Translations under genes and position numbers: made by a program
Notes under the pieces: generated by a model
Seen by the model: the letters and a program-made list of their open reading frames with translations, nothing else
Databases searched by the model: none
What the model was told of the DNA's origin: nothing
Part shown: positions 51,105 through 61,765 of the stretch, piece after piece
Layout of the letters: each line of letters starts with the position of its first letter
Numbering within the stretch: the first letter of the stretch is position 1
DNA from: Escherichia phage ECD7
DNA: 64,000 nt
Sequence record: NC_041936.1
Reading direction: 5' to 3' (one strand)

Positions 51105-52595
51105 ATGGCAGATTTGAAATATGGATCTACTGTAGGTGGATCTCCCATTTGGACGCAAGGAAACTTGACGATCCAGCCAGCGGGGGATCAGCTTTTCTAC
51201 AAAGGTCATAAAATCTATACCGCTTTTGATAGACCTTCGGCTACCGATTTTGATGCTGTTAGTGCATCCGAAGGTGGAACATTTCAAAAGCAAGTTCATT
51301 TCGAGGAAGGTTTAAGCGTAGGTAGCGCATCGGCTGGAGAAACCAAAAAGAATGGTATCTTTAAAGGTCAGAGTGACGCTGCTAATTTTGACGGCGTAAG
51401 CTGGGGTTTGCATTCATGGAAGTCAATCGGCTTTGTTAATGCCCGTGATGGCGTTATTATGGCGTATATTGACACCACAACGGGCGAATTTAAGTCTAAA
51501 GGGACTATCGAAGGGACAACCATTAAAGACACAGGTCAACGCGTCTATAGCCCTGTTAATAAACCAACGAATAATGATTTAGATTTGGTGTCTCGTCGCG
51601 GTGATACTCTCACAGGAACATATAATTTAAACACTGTCACTGTTAAACTATCGGTTGATTCGAAATTAATTGCAAGGGAACGTGATTTAATTAATTTTGA
51701 TGCGACTAAGATCTATTATGGTAACGTTCTTGATACGTTGGTCTTCCGAAGTAAAGATGAGCCTACCATTTTTGTTAATGGCAAAGAAGGTCGTTTTTAT
51801 CACACCAACAATAAACCAACTAAAGCCGATGTTGGACTAGGAAATGTCACCAATGATGCACAGGTTAAACGTGCTGGTGATATTATGGAAGGTAACTTGC
51901 AAGCGCCTAGAATGTTGGCGACAAACGATCCTGCTGGTCCTAATGAATTGGTTCGTTTGAGCTACTTTGAGAGAAAATCAATGGTAGCAAATCCAACCAT
52001 CATAGGAAACGTTGATTGGAACACTCTTATTAATCGCGGTATCTATCGTGTGGAAAATGCTGGGTCGGGTACTAATAAACCGTCTGATAGCTATTATAAC
52101 GGCGTTTTGATGGTATATCGCCCAGAAGATGCGGTCGGCACTCGTCGAATTGTTCAGGTGTATTATCCTGAATCTATTGACCATCCGATGTGCTGGCGTT
52201 CTTGTTCTAATGAATCATGGACTGCATGGAACTATGTAGATCACCGTAAATTAGCCGATATTCGCTATGTTAACGTAACTGGCGATACCATGACAGGACC
52301 GTTAACTGTTCCGGCTGCAAACGGTGTTAGAACGGCTAAAACTAACTATAACGGGGATAACTGTTATGCGGCGTTAAGCGGTGCTGATGGTACTGCTATG
52401 ATTCACCGCATTAGTGATATTAAAGGGACCGAAAAGCTGGGGATCACCCACGACTCAAAGGTCGTGTTTTTCCGTTCTAGAAACAATACTCAAACCGTGG
52501 ACCGCTATCAGCTTTATCATGAAGGCAATAAGCCTACTCCGGCTGATGTTGGAGCGGTTCCACTTAATGCGGTGATTGATTTTGGTACTTTCTAA
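51105..52595 (+). CDS. 36: long tail fibre distal subunit gp36
   Basis: N-terminus MADLKYGSTVGGSPIWTQGN.. matches T4 gp36 N-terminus; late promoter TATAAATA 51063-51070; longer than the T4 protein as I recall it. Confidence 0.8.
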   Translation: MADLKYGSTVGGSPIWTQGNLTIQPAGDQLFYKGHKIYTAFDRPSATDFDAVSASEGGTFQKQVHFEEGLSVGSASAGETKKNGIFKGQSDAANFDGVSWGLHSWKSIGFVNARDGVIMAYIDTTTGEFKSKGTIEGTTIKDTGQRVYSPVNKPTNNDLDLVSRRGDTLTGTYNLNTVTVKLSVDSKLIARERDLINFDATKIYYGNVLDTLVFRSKDEPTIFVNGKEGRFYHTNNKPTKADVGLGNVTNDAQVKRAGDIMEGNLQAPRMLATNDPAGPNELVRLSYFERKSMVANPTIIGNVDWNTLINRGIYRVENAGSGTNKPSDSYYNGVLMVYRPEDAVGTRRIVQVYYPESIDHPMCWRSCSNESWTAWNYVDHRKLADIRYVNVTGDTMTGPLTVPAANGVRTAKTNYNGDNCYAALSGADGTAMIHRISDIKGTEKLGITHDSKVVFFRSRNNTQTVDRYQLYHEGNKPTPADVGAVPLNAVIDFGTF

Positions 52596-52599
52596 TTTT

Positions 52600-52625
52600 A
52601 GCGGGGATTATCTCCCCGCTTTTCT
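52600..52625 (+). terminator. rho-independent terminator downstream of gene 36
   Basis: AGCGGGGATTATCTCCCCGCT hairpin followed by TTTCT. Confidence 0.5.
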
Positions 52626-52665
52626 AAATAATATTATTCTAATAACCGTTTAAGGATTTTATAAA

Positions 52666-55608
52666 ATGGCAGATTTAAGCAGAATCCAATTTAAACGCAC
52701 TAGCACTAAAGGTCGTAAACCTGATGCTAGTACGATGAATCCGGGGGAATTGGCAATCAACCTTGCGGATCAATATCTTCTTACTAAAAATGATTCCGGT
52801 GCTATTATCAATTTAAGTTGTCCTCCGGTGTATGACCGCGATGTTACAATGGCGGGTAAGGTTAAAGGTAATAATTATATCTTAAGTAAAACCGCCAACT
52901 ATTTGGAAGACCAGACAGCGAGAGATCTTAACTACTTTGGCGCTTTCTGTACCAATGGTCTTGATGGTCTTCTCGAACTCACGCTAAACGTTCCTCACTC
53001 TTCCGGTGTCCAACATGGTCGAGGATTTACTTTCCAGTATGGGCACACTGGATCGCGCGTAGAAACTTATGGATATAATGCACAAGGACAAAAAGCATTT
53101 AGCTATAAAATGTATCACGAAGGTGATAAACCAACTCCAGGAGAATTGAACGTTTATAGCAAACAAGAAGTTGACCGTATGTTTGTTAAAACCGTTAAAC
53201 TTGCTACAGTTCCTGTTGATATAGTTGACGGTTATTTTAAATTAGCGACTGCGATGATTCCGCAAAACGGTCGTAGCGTATTTTTCCGTATTCATGGTGG
53301 TAACGGATATAACGTTACTGCATACGATCAAGTTGATATTGTAGAAATTGTTATTCGCAGTGGAAATAATCGTCCTAAAGGTGTTAACGTTATTGCATAC
53401 CGCCGAAATACAAACAAAGCATTTGATGTTTTGGCTGTTAATACTTCTGGTGATAACTATGATATCTACGTGAAATATCAGCGTTACACTGATAACGTTA
53501 TTGTTGAATTTGGTAAAAGTGTTGATGTTGATCTGGTAGTCCATGACGTTCCAGATTTTGTTGTTGATCGTCCTGTTGGCGATAATGTTATTGGCGGTCG
53601 CGCGGTAACTCTTTTCAACACCGAAAACAAACGAGGTGTGTTGAGTTTTGACGACAACACACAAAATAGTTATGATATTGTTCACTTGAGTAATGATAGG
53701 GGTACTGGACGGAAATATATTCGTAAATTCCGTAGCAACTATAACGAAATGATCTGGCATGAGACGGTTCAAGGTTCTACTTATCGACTCGCCACGGGTA
53801 GTACAGATGCCCAGGAGATTCTATCCGTTGAATCTAGTAGCTCTATTGCTGGGACTCATAAAGGTAATATTCTTTCTGGTCGAATGATGTTGGGTGGCGG
53901 TAGTAATGTTATTACCTTGCGGCGTCCTGCTGGTCAATCCAACCATATTACGTTTCAAGATAATCGGACTGGATCTATTACCCGTCAAGGGTGGATCGGT
54001 TATGGTAATGCTGATACTAACGTTTTTGAATGGTATAGTGATGTAGGTGGTACTTCTATTCGTCACCACATCGACGGACAGATCGAACTTGCAACCGGTA
54101 ACACAAAACGAGTTTATACTAACGCTCAATTCATCTCAATGAATAGCAACGCCTACCGTATGCTATACGGTAATTATGGTGCATTCTGGCGTAATGACGG
54201 CGTTAAAGTTTATCTTCTTTCTACTGCCGAAAATGATAAATTGGGTGGATGGAATAGCTATCGTCCATTCATTTATGATTTAACTTCCGGTAACGTTCAA
54301 TTAGGCGGTGATGGTAACGAAGATGCATTAACGTTAGAACTTGCTTCTCGTGCCGCTCGCTTTAGTAATGACGTTTACATTAAGAAAGGGCATTTGACTT
54401 TCGACGCTGGGCGCTCTGGATCTCGCGATTACTTCCGGTTTAACCATTGGGGTGATAGCAATAATGCCCGTGATAACATTCTATATCTAGAAGACAGTAA
54501 AGGTCGACATTTTAGCACCGAGCGTAATATGGCAACGGGTGCATTAAAAGCCGACTTCTTAGGCGATCTTGAAGTTGGTGGTAAGTTGACATGGGGTAAA
54601 AATACAGCTACATCTAGCTTTAATATTCGTGCATGGGGTAGTGATTCTCGTAAGCAAGTATTAGAATGCGCGGATGAAAGTGGTTGGCATTGGTATACCC
54701 AACGTGCTGGCGGTCCAGGTACTGAATTAATCGATTTTGCCATTAATGGTACTGTTAAGCCTAAAGCAATTCACACTGGCGGTAATATTACCCTGAACGG
54801 TCCTGATATTGAGTTTAAACGCGCTGGCAATAAGCACATCTGGTTTAGAGATCCAGACGGTTTAGAGTTAGGCTTGATGTACTGCGATGATGCTGGTGCT
54901 ATTCGATTCCGTGGTCAGAAACAAGCCCAAGCGTGGAAATTTGCAGATAAAATGATCCAGTTGGAATCTGGTACTGTAACCGGTGGCGGTAATGGCCTGA
55001 TTCGTGGTGAAGTTGCTGGCGGTAGTTGGGCTAGCTGGCGTGACCGTGCTGCTGGCCTTATGGTTGGGTGTCCTCAATCCACCAACTCGGCACATAACGT
55101 ATGGAAAGCGACGCATTGGGGTAAATATCACATTGCAGCAATGGCTGTACATGTTCCTGATGGTACTATTACCAATGCTTTAGCTCGCCTAAACGTTCAT
55201 GACGCCAACTTTGACTTTAGCGCATCCGGTGACTTGTCGGCAGGTCGTAACGGTTCGTTTAACGATGTGTATATTCGTTCTGATGCTCGCCTTAAAATCA
55301 ATAAGGAAGAGTATAAGGAGAATGCCACCGATAAAGTTAATCGCTTGACGGTATACACCTATGACAAGGTTAAATCTTTAACCGACCGTACTGTCATTGC
55401 TCATGAAGTTGGTATTATTGCTCAGGATCTTGAAAAAGAATTGCCGGAAGCCGTAACAACTTCTAAGATCGGCGACCCAGATAATCCAGAAGAGATCTTA
55501 ACAATTTCTAACTCTGCTGTCAACGCTCTTTTAATTAAGGCGTTTCAGGAAATGAGCAAAGAATTGAAAGCCGTTAAAGCTGAACTAGCAGAACTTAAAA
55601 AGAATTAA
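52666..55608 (+). CDS. 37: long tail fibre distal subunit gp37 with C-terminal intramolecular chaperone domain
   Basis: N-terminus ..IQFKRTSTKGRKPDASTMNPGELAINL.. matches T4 gp37; C-terminus ..YIRSDARLKINKEE.. to end resembles peptidase S74 autoproteolytic chaperone domains. Confidence 0.85.
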   Translation: MADLSRIQFKRTSTKGRKPDASTMNPGELAINLADQYLLTKNDSGAIINLSCPPVYDRDVTMAGKVKGNNYILSKTANYLEDQTARDLNYFGAFCTNGLDGLLELTLNVPHSSGVQHGRGFTFQYGHTGSRVETYGYNAQGQKAFSYKMYHEGDKPTPGELNVYSKQEVDRMFVKTVKLATVPVDIVDGYFKLATAMIPQNGRSVFFRIHGGNGYNVTAYDQVDIVEIVIRSGNNRPKGVNVIAYRRNTNKAFDVLAVNTSGDNYDIYVKYQRYTDNVIVEFGKSVDVDLVVHDVPDFVVDRPVGDNVIGGRAVTLFNTENKRGVLSFDDNTQNSYDIVHLSNDRGTGRKYIRKFRSNYNEMIWHETVQGSTYRLATGSTDAQEILSVESSSSIAGTHKGNILSGRMMLGGGSNVITLRRPAGQSNHITFQDNRTGSITRQGWIGYGNADTNVFEWYSDVGGTSIRHHIDGQIELATGNTKRVYTNAQFISMNSNAYRMLYGNYGAFWRNDGVKVYLLSTAENDKLGGWNSYRPFIYDLTSGNVQLGGDGNEDALTLELASRAARFSNDVYIKKGHLTFDAGRSGSRDYFRFNHWGDSNNARDNILYLEDSKGRHFSTERNMATGALKADFLGDLEVGGKLTWGKNTATSSFNIRAWGSDSRKQVLECADESGWHWYTQRAGGPGTELIDFAINGTVKPKAIHTGGNITLNGPDIEFKRAGNKHIWFRDPDGLELGLMYCDDAGAIRFRGQKQAQAWKFADKMIQLESGTVTGGGNGLIRGEVAGGSWASWRDRAAGLMVGCPQSTNSAHNVWKATHWGKYHIAAMAVHVPDGTITNALARLNVHDANFDFSASGDLSAGRNGSFNDVYIRSDARLKINKEEYKENATDKVNRLTVYTYDKVKSLTDRTVIAHEVGIIAQDLEKELPEAVTTSKIGDPDNPEEILTISNSAVNALLIKAFQEMSKELKAVKAELAELKKN

Positions 55609-55650: not shown

Positions 55651-55890
55651 GTGGTCTATAATATCATCATTGGTGCTTTGTCTAATTTCGGAATGAAATT
55701 ATTGTCAAAGTTAATTAGTGAAAAGATGCTCACTAAAATTTTCTTCTACTGCGCTCGTCGTCTTGCGGCTTATACCAATACGCCAATTGATGATCGTTTT
55801 GTGGAAGAACTTTATAAGGAGTTTAATAAAGATCAGTCAGAAGATAGTAACGAGCAAGATAAACCTAGTGATAGTCAAGTACCTAAATAA
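55651..55890 (+). CDS. hypothetical small protein (GTG start)
   Basis: 79 aa, AAGGAG SD 8 nt upstream of GTG; hydrophobic N-terminus, acidic tail; occupies the gp38 position but is not gp38-like. Confidence 0.4.
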   Translation: MVYNIIIGALSNFGMKLLSKLISEKMLTKIFFYCARRLAAYTNTPIDDRFVEELYKEFNKDQSEDSNEQDKPSDSQVPK

Positions 55891-55923: not shown

Positions 55924-56580
55924 ATGCAAGTTTCTGAAAAAGAGAAAGACTTTGCTATCTCAAATGTCCTGCGCGCTATTTTCACAACTAAAAGCACGGA
56001 GTTGCTCGTACTTCGTGTTTTTGCTGCCGTCGTGTTGTCCATATTGGCATTTGTCGTTTATAGTAAAAACGAGTTATTTGCGCTTTATAAAGAGACTCGT
56101 TATGAGACTTATGCTCACATTCTCCAGGTAGAGAAAGACCGCAATTTTGATAATGCAGCACAGGAGCAGTTACAGATAGTTCATGTGTCGGCTGATGCCG
56201 ATTTTTCTGCTGTTTTTAGTTTTCGTCCGAAAAACCTAAACTATTTTGTTGATTTGGTGGCATATGAAGGAAAGCTACCGCACACAATCGATGAAAAAAA
56301 TTTAGGCGGATTCCCTATCAATAAAACGAGTGAAGAATATCGTAGGCATCTTTTAGGTAAATCATATTTTACCGATAAAGATTTCCAGTATATTCCATCA
56401 AGAGAAAAGAAATTAGAGAATATCGATATAGGTTTCATGTATTCTTGTCCTATATTCAATCTCGATAATGTCTATTCTGGTAGTATCGCCATTTCATGGA
56501 AGAATAAACCGGATATTGACATTGAGAATTTAGATACTCTTTGCAATCAATCTGCCAGAATCCTCGGAAGGATTAGATAA
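55924..56580 (+). CDS. t: holin T
   Basis: 218 aa; ..YETYAHILQVEKDRNFDNAAQEQLQIVHVSADADFSAVFSFRPKNLNYFVDLVAYEGKLP..ARILGR matches recalled T4 holin T. Confidence 0.85.
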   Translation: MQVSEKEKDFAISNVLRAIFTTKSTELLVLRVFAAVVLSILAFVVYSKNELFALYKETRYETYAHILQVEKDRNFDNAAQEQLQIVHVSADADFSAVFSFRPKNLNYFVDLVAYEGKLPHTIDEKNLGGFPINKTSEEYRRHLLGKSYFTDKDFQYIPSREKKLENIDIGFMYSCPIFNLDNVYSGSIAISWKNKPDIDIENLDTLCNQSARILGRIR

Positions 56581-56585
56581 CTTAA

Positions 56586-56617
56586 AGGGGAAGCCTTTCG
56601 GCCTCCCCTTCTTTTTA
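56586..56617 (+). terminator. rho-independent terminator downstream of holin t
   Basis: GGGGAAGCCTTTCGGCCTCCCC hairpin followed by TTCTTTTTATT. Confidence 0.65.
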
Positions 56618-56863
56618 TTGGCGCATAGAAGCCCCTGAATCACATTTTGACGCTGTATGATGAAAACAGGTAGCGTACCAGTCATCGGCTTGTTTGTCTT
56701 CGTCAGAAAACGCGTAATTGCGTTGTATGCCGTTTTCTACTTTGACCAGTGCAATAGCTGTTTCTGGAAGATCAATCAATCGGACAAAATCGCCATCTTC
56801 CCATTCTACACGAGCAATATCATAACCCATCTCAAAGTATACAATCGCTTGTTCTAATTTCAT
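56615..56863 (-). CDS. DUF2829-like (Tad2-like) small protein, tentative
   Basis: 82 aa; ..LEQAIVYFEMGYDIARVEWEDG.. and C-terminal ..DKQADDWY.. follow the pattern I associate with DUF2829; pattern-level only. Confidence 0.45.
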   Translation of the reverse strand: MKLEQAIVYFEMGYDIARVEWEDGDFVRLIDLPETAIALVKVENGIQRNYAFSDEDKQADDWYATCFHHTASKCDSGASMRQ

Positions 56864-57192
56864 TCTGGAAACTTCCCGTAAATGTTCTCTGCCAACATAC
56901 GCGCATCGCTAATGATATCTTTCATGCTATGACCGTAGTGTTCAGCCATTGAGTTGACACAATCAACAAAGAAATTATAACGGCGACGGTTTAAGATTTC
57001 TTCTCTGCTATAGTTTTCATATTTGACGGTCGAGTGTGCTTTCTCGATTGCCTTGATTGCTATATTGACTTCATTGATAATGGTTTTAGCATTGTATGCG
57101 CCACGACGGATCAGGATATTTGTCAATTCTCTTGCAATATCTTGCAATTCTTCATATTCATGTTCAAACATAATCAACCTCTCAAAATACAA
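56860..57192 (-). CDS. hypothetical early protein
   Basis: 110-aa ORF. Confidence 0.5.
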   Translation of the reverse strand: MYFERLIMFEHEYEELQDIARELTNILIRRGAYNAKTIINEVNIAIKAIEKAHSTVKYENYSREEILNRRRYNFFVDCVNSMAEHYGHSMKDIISDARMLAENIYGKFPE

Positions 57193-57195
57193 TCC

Positions 57196-57540
57196 TTACA
57201 GATGAAAACCTGTTACGATCACCGCATCGATCTTACCGCTAGGAATAAACGGTTCGCCCTCTTTTATTTCAACTTTGAATTGATGCCATTTCGCTAATAC
57301 TTCTTCCGGTACACCCAGCGATTCGGCGTCTGCTTTAGTTTCATCCATAATCCAACTAGGCTGCATGAGAGCATAGTTTACATAGTCCATTTCTGGGGTC
57401 ATGTCATCAATGTTAATATATTTGCAGTTGACGCGTTTCAGAATTTCAAATTCTTTATTGTCAACCTGTACCATGTATAATTCAGTAGTTTCTGGAATCA
57501 GTTCCCACACAATCAGTACATTTTTCATAGTTCGCCTCAC
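57196..57540 (-). CDS. hypothetical early protein
   Basis: 114-aa ORF. Confidence 0.5.
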   Translation of the reverse strand: MRRTMKNVLIVWELIPETTELYMVQVDNKEFEILKRVNCKYINIDDMTPEMDYVNYALMQPSWIMDETKADAESLGVPEEVLAKWHQFKVEIKEGEPFIPSGKIDAVIVTGFHL

Positions 57541-57905
57541 TTAACAAACATTTTCTTTAATGCTTTCAGGATCGTTGCTTCCGGCGCTTCTTCCGGTGGA
57601 GGAAGCAATTCTACCACTTCCTCTTCCAACTCGATATAGTCTACCAGATATTCTACATAGAATGCAAGTGCTTCCATGAAATTAAATGCTACATCCGATT
57701 CACCACAAGCGCCTACATGCATTGTATAAACATCACTGCGATCAAGTTTGTGGATGCTTCCCAGATAGTTTCGGTTATACCAGACTTCCCACACTTTCAG
57801 CTTTCCGGTTTTGGTTGCTGTTTTATAATCGGTTTCGTAATGATGCAATTGACGTTGCAAATCATTGATAATAACACATTTTTCGTAATTGTTTTGAATT
57901 TCCAT
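57537..57905 (-). CDS. hypothetical early protein
   Basis: 122-aa ORF with acidic tail. Confidence 0.5.
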   Translation of the reverse strand: MEIQNNYEKCVIINDLQRQLHHYETDYKTATKTGKLKVWEVWYNRNYLGSIHKLDRSDVYTMHVGACGESDVAFNFMEALAFYVEYLVDYIELEEEVVELLPPPEEAPEATILKALKKMFVK

Positions 57906-57915
57906 GATGTAATCC

Positions 57916-58107
57916 TCACTTATCGTTAAGAAGTTCTAAAACTTTCTGTCGTACTTTGTCAATATTAGTTGATTCAAAAACTGTACGGTATCCCCAGCTT
58001 TGACCGTATGAGCGGTTGCAATCTCCATATCCCCATTGTTCAACCTGGTAGTATTCAAGGAATGGATGCTGCCGAACTATGATACCATCGCGATTAAAAA
58101 TTACCAT
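57916..58107 (-). CDS. hypothetical small protein
   Basis: 63-aa ORF. Confidence 0.45.
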   Translation of the reverse strand: MVIFNRDGIIVRQHPFLEYYQVEQWGYGDCNRSYGQSWGYRTVFESTNIDKVRQKVLELLNDK

Positions 58108-58130: not shown

Positions 58131-58418
58131 TTATTTTCGGTTGTGGTCACGATATGTTTTAAAATATCCCTCGTACCACGGTAAAATATCTGGATTTTTA
58201 CCACTATACAGACTTTTAACCATCATGTCAATAAGGCCATCTGGTGTTTGATAGTTTCCAGCTTTTATAAGCTCTCTGATTAAAATCTCTCTGTATATGT
58301 CTTTCGGATCTTCGTAATCAACTTGTATTGTGGTTGTGGTCTCATTCAATTTTGTTTCTGGAGTATCTCGCATTGCATCCCACCAATCTTTTGTGACCTT
58401 AATGTTATTGAATTGCAT
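58131..58418 (-). CDS. hypothetical early protein
   Basis: 95-aa ORF. Confidence 0.5.
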   Translation of the reverse strand: MQFNNIKVTKDWWDAMRDTPETKLNETTTTIQVDYEDPKDIYREILIRELIKAGNYQTPDGLIDMMVKSLYSGKNPDILPWYEGYFKTYRDHNRK

Positions 58419-58429
58419 AATTTAACCTC

Positions 58430-59188
58430 TTACTTGCAAACGTATTGATCTACATCAATTGCGCCACCGAATGTGGGATGACGTTTTTCAAATCGAATAG
58501 TTCCGTCGTTTGGTTCGAAAACGGAGTATTCATATAGATCTTTCTTGCCAACATTCTTATAAAACCCACCTTTAGTCATAACGGTTTCTTGTACGTTTGC
58601 TTTGTGTACGTTGTATTCGTCAATGTATACAAAATCAACCATCTTCCCATTTTTAATGGTTACTTTAAGATCTCCTGGCTGGTTTCCATATTTTGCATAC
58701 AGTGGAGCCTCTTTAATTTTTGTGGAAATTCCATCTTTCATACTCCACTCATAACGAACGGTGCATTGATAGGTAAAAGTTTCGACCTTCGGTTCTTCTA
58801 CCACTTTTGCTTCCTGTTTCGGTTGTTCTTCTTCAACCTTCGCAGAAGTCTCTGAATCTCTCTCTGACTCGGTTTCTTCTTTAGGTAATACATTCATCAA
58901 GTTTTGGATTTGAGCGTTATATACAACCTCCAGTGGCTGAATCTGCCCGATATTGATCATTGTATCACGAACAGTTTTATTCCAGTTGCGTTGCTCTTGT
59001 TTAAGAGACGGATCAATCTTAACAGCCTTAACATATACCTCATGAAGTTTCGAATCCAGTGCGGAGATTGACTCATTAGCACAAATAAACTTCTCTGATT
59101 TGGTAGTGGCTTTAGCGCAATCAAAGGACGCAGCATTAGCACCGAAAGCAGTAGCGGAAAGAACGATAGCAGCGATAATGTTTTTCAT
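58430..59188 (-). CDS. secreted protein with DUF1311 (LprI-like) N-terminal domain, tentative
   Basis: cleavable signal peptide MKNIIAAIVLSATAFGANAAS; ..FDCAKA..FICANE..LD..L..Y......QRNW..RD.. pattern; promoter cassette upstream. Confidence 0.55.
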   Translation of the reverse strand: MKNIIAAIVLSATAFGANAASFDCAKATTKSEKFICANESISALDSKLHEVYVKAVKIDPSLKQEQRNWNKTVRDTMINIGQIQPLEVVYNAQIQNLMNVLPKEETESERDSETSAKVEEEQPKQEAKVVEEPKVETFTYQCTVRYEWSMKDGISTKIKEAPLYAKYGNQPGDLKVTIKNGKMVDFVYIDEYNVHKANVQETVMTKGGFYKNVGKKDLYEYSVFEPNDGTIRFEKRHPTFGGAIDVDQYVCK

Positions 59189-59251
59189 AATATATTCCTC
59201 AATGTTTTGTCTTGATGGGAGTATCTTACTACTCCCTTAATCCGGTGTCAA
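59189..59251 (-). promoter_or_regulatory. early promoter cassette (PeSL-like) 17
   Basis: TTGACA, CCGGATTAAGGGAGTAG, TAAGAT with GGGAGTAGTAAGATACTCCC inverted repeat, leader CATCAAGACAAAAC. Confidence 0.5.
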
Positions 59252-59697: not shown

Positions 59698-59755
59698 GTG
59701 ATTCTCCTTTTGTTTGGTATTTGTGTATTATGCAATGATGGATTATGGAAGTCAA
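59698..59755 (-). promoter_or_regulatory. early promoter cassette 19
   Basis: TTGACT, 17 bp, CATAAT, leader, GGAGAATCACATG. Confidence 0.45.
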
Positions 59756-59767
59756 CAACTTTTAAAA

Positions 59768-59794
59768 TAAAAAAGCCGACCACAAGGATCGGCT
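59768..59794 (-). terminator. rho-independent terminator
   Basis: AGCCGATCCTTGTGGTCGGCT hairpin then TTTTTTATTTT on minus strand. Confidence 0.6.
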
Positions 59795-59804
59795 TAATAA
59801 TCAG

Positions 59805-60407: not shown

Positions 60408-61765
60408 CCCTTCTTAAGTTCTTTAAGATCTTTCTTATATTCCTTCATTGCGGTCGTCTTTGTCCAATACTCATATTCACTATGATGTTTATCGGCATCT
60501 TTGACCAGTCGATCATACTCTTCTTGAGTAACGCTATACAATGGCATAGAAACTAGCTTATCGGCGTATGGACGCAGTTTTTCATGTCCATTGATGGATT
60601 GCATTACCTCGGCCTTTTTCTTTCCCTGTAGCTCGATTTCGCCCTTAATTACAAGGTCGATAAATTCGGCTTTAGCCATTGCATAATTGTATGCTTCCAG
60701 CGTTTCCGCTTGCATCAATTCAATGCGTTTATCGACATACCCTAATCGGATTTCGACGAATCGACGGATCAGATCACTAGCTTTATCGAATACTTCAACT
60801 AGACCACGTTCGTTAACTACTACGATATTCTGGGCTACTAACTGCGTTAGTTTAAAATCCTTCATGATTTGCTCATGTCGAGCGGATTCATCTTCGCTTT
60901 TGAAATAATCACGTTTCAGTGTTACTTCAAATCTGAATCCGTCCTTAGAGCAACGGTCATTATATGAGACAATCAGATCTTTTTCTTCCAGTGCATCCAG
61001 TACCGCTACATATTCTTCACGGTCGAACTTATAAGGAACTTCTGATATTGTCAGTTTAGTCTTGCCGTTTAGTTCATATATACCCTCAAGAATAACACCA
61101 TCGCGATCATCTCGCGGGATAACTTTACCCGTGAATTTTGGGAATTGAACACTAGGTTCTTTATCCAGTTTTCCGGCAAGTGCTAGCTCTGTGCATTCAA
61201 TGAGGCTTTCCAGTGAATGCGGTAAAATGTCAGTTTTATACCCTGAAGCAATACCACTAATACCATTAGCCAATACCATTGGCACAACTGGCAAGTAGAA
61301 CGCTGGCGGGATGTGTTCCAGATCTTCGTGCTTAGGTGCGCAATTCATATCTTTATAGATTTTAAAGAAGTTTTCATGTACACGAGCAAAGATATAACGT
61401 GCCGCACCTGCTTTCTGGACTAAACGCGATCCGAAGTTACCTTGACCGTCAAGCAGTGGAGTATTATTGCTCCATGTATTCGCCATGAGTGATCCGGCTT
61501 CTACGGCATTAGTTTCGCCGTGGTGATACCCCAACTCAGCGACACCAGATCCAATATCTGCCATCTTACGGAATTTCTTACGGTCGCCTTTACTCTTTTG
61601 CAAAGCACATTCCATAACAAAGCGTTGCACTGGTTTAAGCCCATCCACTAATTGAGGAATCCCGCGTTCCTCGGCAGAATAGATCGCATATTCCTTAGCT
61701 TCATTATGTACAATGCTTTCAAGGCTGCGGTAAGTAACTGATTTATTCATCTTCACCTCATACAC
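60404..61765 (-). CDS. 52: DNA topoisomerase II medium subunit gp52 (GyrA-like)
   Basis: ..DGLKPVQRFV.. GyrA/ParC N-terminal signature; 453 aa (T4 gp52 about 440). Confidence 0.85.
   Translation of the reverse strand: MYEVKMNKSVTYRSLESIVHNEAKEYAIYSAEERGIPQLVDGLKPVQRFVMECALQKSKGDRKKFRKMADIGSGVAELGYHHGETNAVEAGSLMANTWSNNTPLLDGQGNFGSRLVQKAGAARYIFARVHENFFKIYKDMNCAPKHEDLEHIPPAFYLPVVPMVLANGISGIASGYKTDILPHSLESLIECTELALAGKLDKEPSVQFPKFTGKVIPRDDRDGVILEGIYELNGKTKLTISEVPYKFDREEYVAVLDALEEKDLIVSYNDRCSKDGFRFEVTLKRDYFKSEDESARHEQIMKDFKLTQLVAQNIVVVNERGLVEVFDKASDLIRRFVEIRLGYVDKRIELMQAETLEAYNYAMAKAEFIDLVIKGEIELQGKKKAEVMQSINGHEKLRPYADKLVSMPLYSVTQEEYDRLVKDADKHHSEYEYWTKTTAMKEYKKDLKELKKG

Follow-up and report, generated by a model that had tools for sequence, protein, structure and literature searches.

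A divergent, minimal Tad2-like protein encoded next to the holin gene of RB49-like phages is a candidate immune-signal sponge

In this study, we analysed a window of 64,000 nt from Escherichia phage ECD7 (NC_041936.1), which corresponds roughly to positions 99-163 kb of the RB49 genome. The source phage belongs to the genus Krischvirus, the RB49-like, T4-type coliphages. The features around the gene of interest are as follows.

55924..56580, plus strand: holin gene t (PF11031, 206 bits; PHROG 860), a synteny anchor outside the putative anti-defence function
56584..56611, no strand assigned: G+C-rich hairpin with a 12-bp stem, between the convergent t and Tad2-like ORFs (RNA fold -23.6 kcal/mol, z -4.76 against shuffles)
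56615..56863, minus strand: CDS of 82 aa, a divergent minimal Tad2-like (DUF2829) protein (ORF list, PF11195, PHROG 1048, RB49p255 identity, purifying selection)
56860..58107, minus strand: four small co-directional ORFs (110, 114, 122 and 63 aa), packed or overlapping, immediately upstream (ORF list)
58203..58231, minus strand: nearest upstream sigma70-type promoter match, TTGACA-17-TATAGT, 11/12 (consensus scan, pattern only)
59223..59251, minus strand: sigma70-type promoter match TTGACA-17-TAAGAT, 10/12, 35 nt upstream of a 252-aa ORF (consensus scan)

The original prediction placed an 82-aa ORF at 56615..56863 on the minus strand and quoted from it the motifs ..AI..F..G..IAR..WEDG.. and ..DDWY. 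The ORF list contains this ORF exactly as described, with an ATG start and the stop codon included, and both motifs occur in its product, MKLEQAIVYFEMGYDIARVEWEDGDFVRLIDLPETAIALVKVENGIQRNYAFSDEDKQADDWYATCFHHTASKCDSGASMRQ. Direct reading of the sequence revealed that the start codon shares nucleotides with the stop codon of the 110-aa ORF upstream (ATGA). The identity to RB49p255 (NP_891826.1) is 100%, and that protein bears no annotation other than 'hypothetical protein'. The 2.9-kb region around the gene is 98.7% identical to that of Escherichia phage vB_ESM-pEJ01 and matched 57 phage records; in 55 of these, the match spans 80% or more of the region. All 57 region-matching Krischvirus records carry the gene, with a protein identity of 97.6-100%; isolates obtained in many countries and on many hosts thus share a near-identical 82-aa protein. 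More distant orthologues, P0004 (59% identity) and P0005 (49%), are found on two metagenomic T4-like contigs, each at the same site, where the gene closes a series of small co-directional ORFs and is convergent with the holin gene t; in one of these two phages, a gp38-type adhesin takes the place of the RB49-type fibre. Comparison of the orthologues gave a pS of 0.83-0.87 (saturated) against a pN of 0.35-0.39. These data demonstrate that 56615..56863 is a real gene and not a chance ORF, that it is conserved in Krischvirus phages, and that it is under strong purifying selection across 40-50% protein divergence.

The predicted adjacency to the holin gene was also borne out, t being convergent with the Tad2-like gene, and the hairpin between the two is probably a bidirectional terminator. 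The four upstream ORFs, which matched PHROGs 9457 and 4658 (no assigned function) and no Pfam family, occur in the same order in RB49 and in the syntenic L005, and probably share one transcription unit with the Tad2-like gene. The nearest promoter match falls inside the 3' end of a 95-aa ORF, and the match at 59223..59251 is, from its sequence, a candidate start of an early transcription unit. Near-consensus sigma70-type matches are found upstream on the same strand at 58231, 59251, 59474 and 59755. Promoter-like sites are not enriched overall (16 found in the consensus scan against 18.8 expected), so only the near-consensus ones are cited here, and as matches. The hyperplastic regions of RB49 are known to carry cassettes of strong sigma70-like early promoters and stem-loops that flank ORFans (PMC2839356). 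Taken together, the promoter matches and these cassettes make early expression likely, and the context suggests that the gene lies within an early-gene block.

Several other features of this neighbourhood were observed. A terminator-like G+C stem-loop at 59795-59773 lies directly before the sigma70-like match at 59755-59727 on the minus strand, and this arrangement (59727-59795) is that described for the PeSL cassettes of RB49 (PMC2839356). The 252-aa ORF (58430-59188, minus strand), which belongs to the same early-looking run, has an N-terminal hydrophobic, signal-like segment, and its residues 24-76 matched PF07007 'Lysozyme inhibitor LprI' with 26.1 bits (cutoff 22), while the remainder matched nothing; a secreted or periplasmic LprI-like protein would be unusual in a T4-like phage. 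On the other side of the holin gene, a 79-aa ORF (55651-55890, plus strand) lies between the distal long-tail-fibre gene and t; its counterparts in RB49 are RB49p252 and the overlapping Dc5, and it matched PHROG 402 (E 5e-20; no assigned function), and the syntenic L005 ORF is tagged PF26925.

The 82-aa protein had been proposed to be DUF2829-like on its residue pattern, and the profile search agreed: it matched PF11195 ('Tad2-like', formerly DUF2829) with 27.9 bits and an E-value of 3.4e-6, a narrow margin over the curated gathering cutoff of 25 bits. Residues 1-63 aligned with profile positions 1-71 of 73. The scores of its relatives were 26.1 (P0004), 25.5 (P0005) and 21.0 bits (a Klebsiella phage homologue), and the alignment was full-length (1-71 of 73) in all four proteins. 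PF11195 is the sole Pfam match of the protein, with which the stored record for P0001 was already tagged; PHROG 1048 (no assigned function) also matched (E 5e-19), and NCBIfam gave no match. The predicted structure matched solved Tad2 structures and essentially nothing else (Foldseek against SPO1 Tad2: probability 1.0, TM 0.57-0.62), and the model has the elements that define the Tad2 fold, namely an N-terminal helix alpha1, a five-stranded antiparallel sheet and a short alpha3 before beta5. The reference protein, SPO1 Tad2, was identified as gp34.65 (PF11195, 85.8 bits). For a canonical set, 201 homologues of gp34.65 were collected and 110 aligned; hhalign of the Krischvirus subfamily against these 110 sequences gave 66 columns from end to end (E 5e-4). 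This register, which agrees with the predicted secondary structure, was used for the residue mapping. When the Klebsiella sequence was added in a second hhalign run, the alignment became local and covered fewer columns (23; E 9e-5), and it was not used for mapping. BLASTP of the 82-aa protein against SPO1 Tad2 gave no alignment, and nothing was found among all PDB chains at E<=10 by phmmer of the protein, by an hmmsearch profile built from four members of the subfamily or by phmmer of the Klebsiella homologue. Given that no direct sequence match to a solved Tad2 was found, the link to Tad2 rests on profiles and fold. We consider with high confidence that the protein is homologous to Tad2. It is, however, not a canonical Tad2 but a divergent, minimal and unusually small member of a known family, at the edge of PF11195. 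Regarding other sponge types, neither PF24729 (the Acb2/Tad1 hairpin sponges) nor similarity to T4 Vs.3 (TadIV-1) was detected in the protein or the window by Pfam search and tblastn.

Relatives of the protein are few. A word-indexed homologue search returned only two to four clusters, and an exhaustive phmmer search over 1.84 billion representative proteins gave eight hits, about five of them real relatives. P0003, P0007 and P0008 (570-3246 aa; E 1e-14 to 1e-6) are spurious repeat proteins whose scores sum six to eight weak stretches, P0007 and P0008 being tandem repeats of unrelated sequence, and P0006 is a fragment. P0002 matches the Tad2-like protein over residues 1-60 but ends in 23 residues (KITVFPFYTSNIITHLKINNRLF) that correspond to the translated antisense ORF at 56657-56857 on the plus strand; it seems to be an assembly chimera across an inverted repeat and not a variant protein. 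The Klebsiella homologue (68 aa; 33.4 bits with the subfamily HMM) occurs in two N4-like phages, which are the only cultured-phage relatives outside Krischvirus. In these phages, the gene (ON602749.1, 8420-8626, in Klebsiella phage VLCpiP4a; L002 1453-1659) is wedged between two tail-protein genes, and its product lacks the C-terminal tail; this late, moron-like setting differs from the early one in RB49.

The domain layout of the protein and the residues that correspond to functional positions of SPO1 Tad2 are as follows.

56675..56863, minus strand: Tad2-like domain, residues 1-63
56618..56674, minus strand: C-terminal tail, residues 64-82 (pLDDT, alignments)
SPO1 W25: W21, invariant in the subfamily
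SPO1 N26: replaced by E22; E, D or V in relatives
SPO1 K28: lost, no equivalent
SPO1 W73: replaced by Y50, invariant in the subfamily
SPO1 S76: S53; S or T across the subfamily
SPO1 T78: replaced by E55; E or S across the subfamily
SPO1 D79: D56, invariant in the subfamily
SPO1 V80: replaced by K57, invariant in the subfamily and seen in no tested Tad2
SPO1 D84-W85: D61-W62, kept

The predicted elements are alpha1 (residues 3-11), beta1 (14-19), beta2 (26-32), beta3 (36-43), beta4 (46-50), alpha3 (54-58) and beta5 (63-67), and the residues at pocket positions are W21, E22, Y50, S53, E55, D56 and K57. In SPO1 Tad2, the main contacts with 1''-3' gcADPR are made by W25, W73, N26 and D79 from both protomers, N26 being a phosphate contact. 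Binding of gcADPR by HgmTad2 is markedly reduced by W21A/N22A and lost in S90A/T92A/D93A. All seven solved Tad2 sequences keep the GWNGK loop together with the W..S.[TS]D motif; in the window protein, the canonical GWNGK loop is EWEDG, and N26, which is invariant in the 110 canonical sequences, is Glu. The architecture is also reduced. The beta2-beta3 insertion with alpha2 (SPO1 residues 36-59) is missing and replaced by a three-residue turn (residues 33-35), and the span from the loop Trp to the second aromatic residue is 29 residues; in tested homologues it is 33-67, or 43-60 if the loop is the canonical GWNG. Since this insertion builds a second pocket, for cyclic dinucleotides or cUMP, in HgmTad2, SptTad2 and MoTad2, its reduction to a turn means that a second pocket cannot exist in the window protein. 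Half of the V-shaped dimer interface of SPO1 Tad2 is contributed by helix alpha2 within the insertion, and a tetramer of the window protein is therefore not assured, although helix alpha1, the tetramerisation element, is present and conserved. Twenty residues follow the anchor Trp, compared with three to seven in the other proteins compared, and neither canonical Tad2 nor the Klebsiella homologue has such a tail. This tail is confined to the T4-like members and poorly conserved; its first few residues end beta5, and residues 69-82 are predicted to be disordered (pLDDT <50). The protein has a net charge of -8 and a pI of 4.5, compared with a net charge of -3 for SPO1 Tad2.

The largest published screen of Tad2 homologues (10.1101/2025.08.24.671296) provides a functional background for these changes. 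Its Table S2 scores seven systems (type I, II and IV Thoeris, two CBASS and two Pycsar), and the part used here covers at least 15 test homologues; we are confident in the assignment of its columns because the control rows read as expected. Most tested Tad2 homologues inhibit type I Thoeris, among them two with non-canonical loops. Tad2_72 (AWPKN; G76, A78) inhibits type I Thoeris, and Tad2_79 (KWSKD; T76, I78, E79) inhibits type I and type IV Thoeris and one CBASS, which indicates, for the entries covered, that non-canonical beta1-beta2 loops are compatible with Tad2 activity and that active homologues tolerate some pocket changes individually; the combination seen in the window protein does not occur among these entries. 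Tad2_69, Tad2_80 and Tad2_81 are scored as inhibiting none of the seven systems. Tad2_80 is a minimal protein of 73 aa with an 'RLEWPDDG' loop, a span of 27 and Leu at position 73, while Tad2_81 is the sole homologue among those covered with Tyr at position 73 and has no loop Trp. Counting the non-canonical homologues covered, three of six are inactive, about one third inhibit some Thoeris and about half inhibit any system (10.1101/2025.08.24.671296). None of the tested homologues in this part belongs to the Krischvirus subfamily, the best scoring about 10 bits with the subfamily HMM, and the 82-aa protein was not found in the supplement tables as far as these were covered. Our literature search found no paper linking RB49 or Krischvirus to Tad2 or Thoeris.

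[quoted passage not shown] TIR-based signalling is a relevant threat to T4-like coliphages. A tblastn search with T4 Vs.3 and Vs.4 (Acb2) revealed no homologue in RB49 1-80 kb or in the window. Thus, the Tad2-like protein may be the only sponge-type candidate of the genus, a weak argument, given that sponge proteins can become too divergent for tblastn to recognise. RB49 does encode Acb1 (57B; PF23474, 174 bits), and its vs/regB region, where T4 has Vs.3 and Vs.4, holds three unrelated ORFans (111, 86 and 64 aa) without a Pfam match, which could be further replacement counter-defence genes. Together, these genes occupy RB49 51983-52812 and 60725-61189 (L009 1983-2812 and 10725-11189), outside the window.

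Taking these data together, the explanation that we favour is a signal sponge. The Tad2-like gene would close an operon of small early ORFs, and its product would appear early in infection and oligomerise through helix alpha1. A putative inter-protomer pocket lined by W21 and Y50, with S53, D56 and K57, would capture an immune signal derived from a nucleotide and thereby keep the host effector from being activated. Precedent in the family points to an ADP-ribose-derived Thoeris/TIR signal as the most likely ligand, but the pocket is changed enough to make the identity of the ligand uncertain. For an immune-signal sponge of any specificity, we regard the case as evenly balanced. It is favoured by the selection acting on the gene, by its fixed site beside t, by the subfamily-invariant positions, which include the equivalents of the main SPO1 ligand contacts W25, W73 and D79, by the S or T retained at S76, by the threat that TIR-based signalling poses to T4-like coliphages, and by the activity scored for Tad2_72 and Tad2_79 despite their non-canonical pockets. 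Doubt comes from the substitutions at the pocket (E at N26 and T78, Y at W73, loss of K28), from the missing alpha2 insertion, from the weak sequence-level link to Tad2 and from the scores of the Tyr-73 protein Tad2_81 and the minimal 'EWPDDG' protein Tad2_80, which inhibit none of the seven systems in the part of the table covered. In addition, a net charge of -8 disfavours the binding of an anionic diphosphate, if neither K57 nor a metal ion offsets it.

The narrowest form of a sponge, a canonical Tad2 homotetramer that sequesters 3'cADPR (1''-3' gcADPR) and blocks type I Thoeris like SPO1 gp34.65, shares family and fold with the protein and agrees with the retained equivalents of W25, S76 and D79, as well as with the inhibition of type I Thoeris by most tested homologues, two with non-canonical loops included. 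The changes N26 to E, T78 to E and W73 to Y, the loss of K28 and the absence of the alpha2 dimerisation element speak against it, and no Tad2 with Tyr 73 or an EW..D loop is active among the entries covered; inhibition of type I Thoeris via 3'cADPR is accordingly doubtful, although within reach. We think it unlikely, too, that the fold now serves a purpose other than sequestering small molecules, for example as a very acidic early inhibitor of a host protein or a nucleic-acid mimic; the conserved W, Y and D residues would then have a structural role. Such a role would fit the pI of 4.5, the charge of -8 against -3 in SPO1 Tad2, the acidic residues in place of phosphate-contacting ones, a T4-like-specific 20-aa tail that could be an interaction peptide, and the several divergent homologues that are inactive against signalling systems in the part of the screen covered. 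It would also agree with the t-motA neighbourhood of T4, which harbours early regulators that bind proteins, such as AsiA and Arn. However, the positions conserved in the subfamily are not scattered over the surface but fall at the ligand pocket of solved Tad2, the tail is missing in the Klebsiella-phage homologue, and no member of the Tad2 family is known to act by protein binding; for the anti-Cas9 claim made for AcrIIA7, Cas9 binding was never shown (10.1101/2023.05.01.538930).

That the gene is a conserved but dispensable early ORFan without an anti-defence role, or a decayed sponge in a hyperplastic region, appears very improbable. It is surrounded by ORFans in an RB49 region rich in shuffled cassettes, and its subfamily is very small, with only about five real relatives among the 1.84 billion representatives; on the other hand, strong purifying selection at this divergence, a fixed site beside t and near-identity in 57 isolates speak against this reading. 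Returning to the signal sponge, a more specific and quite unlikely version is that the Krischvirus subfamily constitutes a new functional class of Tad2, a sponge for an enterobacterial signal outside the known Tad2 specificities. Its signature would be EW[ED]D...Y-x-[FP]-[ST]-x-[ES]-D-K...DW in a minimal dimer or tetramer without the alpha2 insertion, and the acidified pocket and the invariant Lys57 would recognise the signal, possibly an ADPR derivative that is cationic or conjugated to an amino acid, or else a molecule made by an as yet uncharacterised TIR system of E. coli.

If active, the protein would give the T4-like coliphages their first described Tad2-type sponge, and its architecture, the smallest known to work, would set the minimum that signal sequestration requires. 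Since RB49-like phages are widely isolated for use against E. coli and Shigella in therapy and biocontrol, a counter-defence gene in their core genome bears on the prediction of host range. The altered pocket could make the protein a cheap bait for the signal used by E. coli TIR-type systems against RB49-like phages; a precedent for such ligand fishing is ModTad2, which served to fish out His-ADPR. If inactive, it would be a useful negative example, indicating that a PF11195 match just above threshold should not be annotated 'anti-Thoeris'. It is a cheap and well-defined experimental target, and one that Pfam-based pipelines already tag.

Among the known systems, SPO1 Tad2 (gp34.65; PDB 8SME/8SMF/8SMG/8WJE) belongs to the same Pfam family, with 85.8 bits compared with 27.9 here. 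Both proteins are small, phage-encoded and located among small genes without assigned function, and the equivalent of SPO1 R22 is kept in the window protein. SPO1 is, however, a Bacillus phage, whereas the window protein comes from a T4-like phage of a Gram-negative host and has an extra 20-aa tail. ModTad2 (Myroides odoratus prophage; PDB 8V3E/9EIB) and HgmTad2/AcrIIA7 (PDB 8KBI and others) keep the canonical GWNGK and W..S.[TS]D motifs, and both have the long beta2-beta3 insertion that makes the second pocket, which is impossible in the window protein. According to the part of the screen covered, Tad2_72, Tad2_79, Tad2_80 and Tad2_81 resemble the window protein in their non-canonical beta1-beta2 loops; Tad2_72 and Tad2_79 retain W73 where the window protein has Tyr, Tad2_80 is similarly minimal but has Leu at this position, and Tad2_81 shares the Tyr. 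None of the four has the Y..[ST].[ES]DK signature or comes from a T4-like phage. Although unrelated to the window protein in sequence and fold, TadIV-1 (Vs.3) and Acb2 (Vs.4) of T4 are its analogues, small early sponges that sequester N7-cADPR or CBASS signals.
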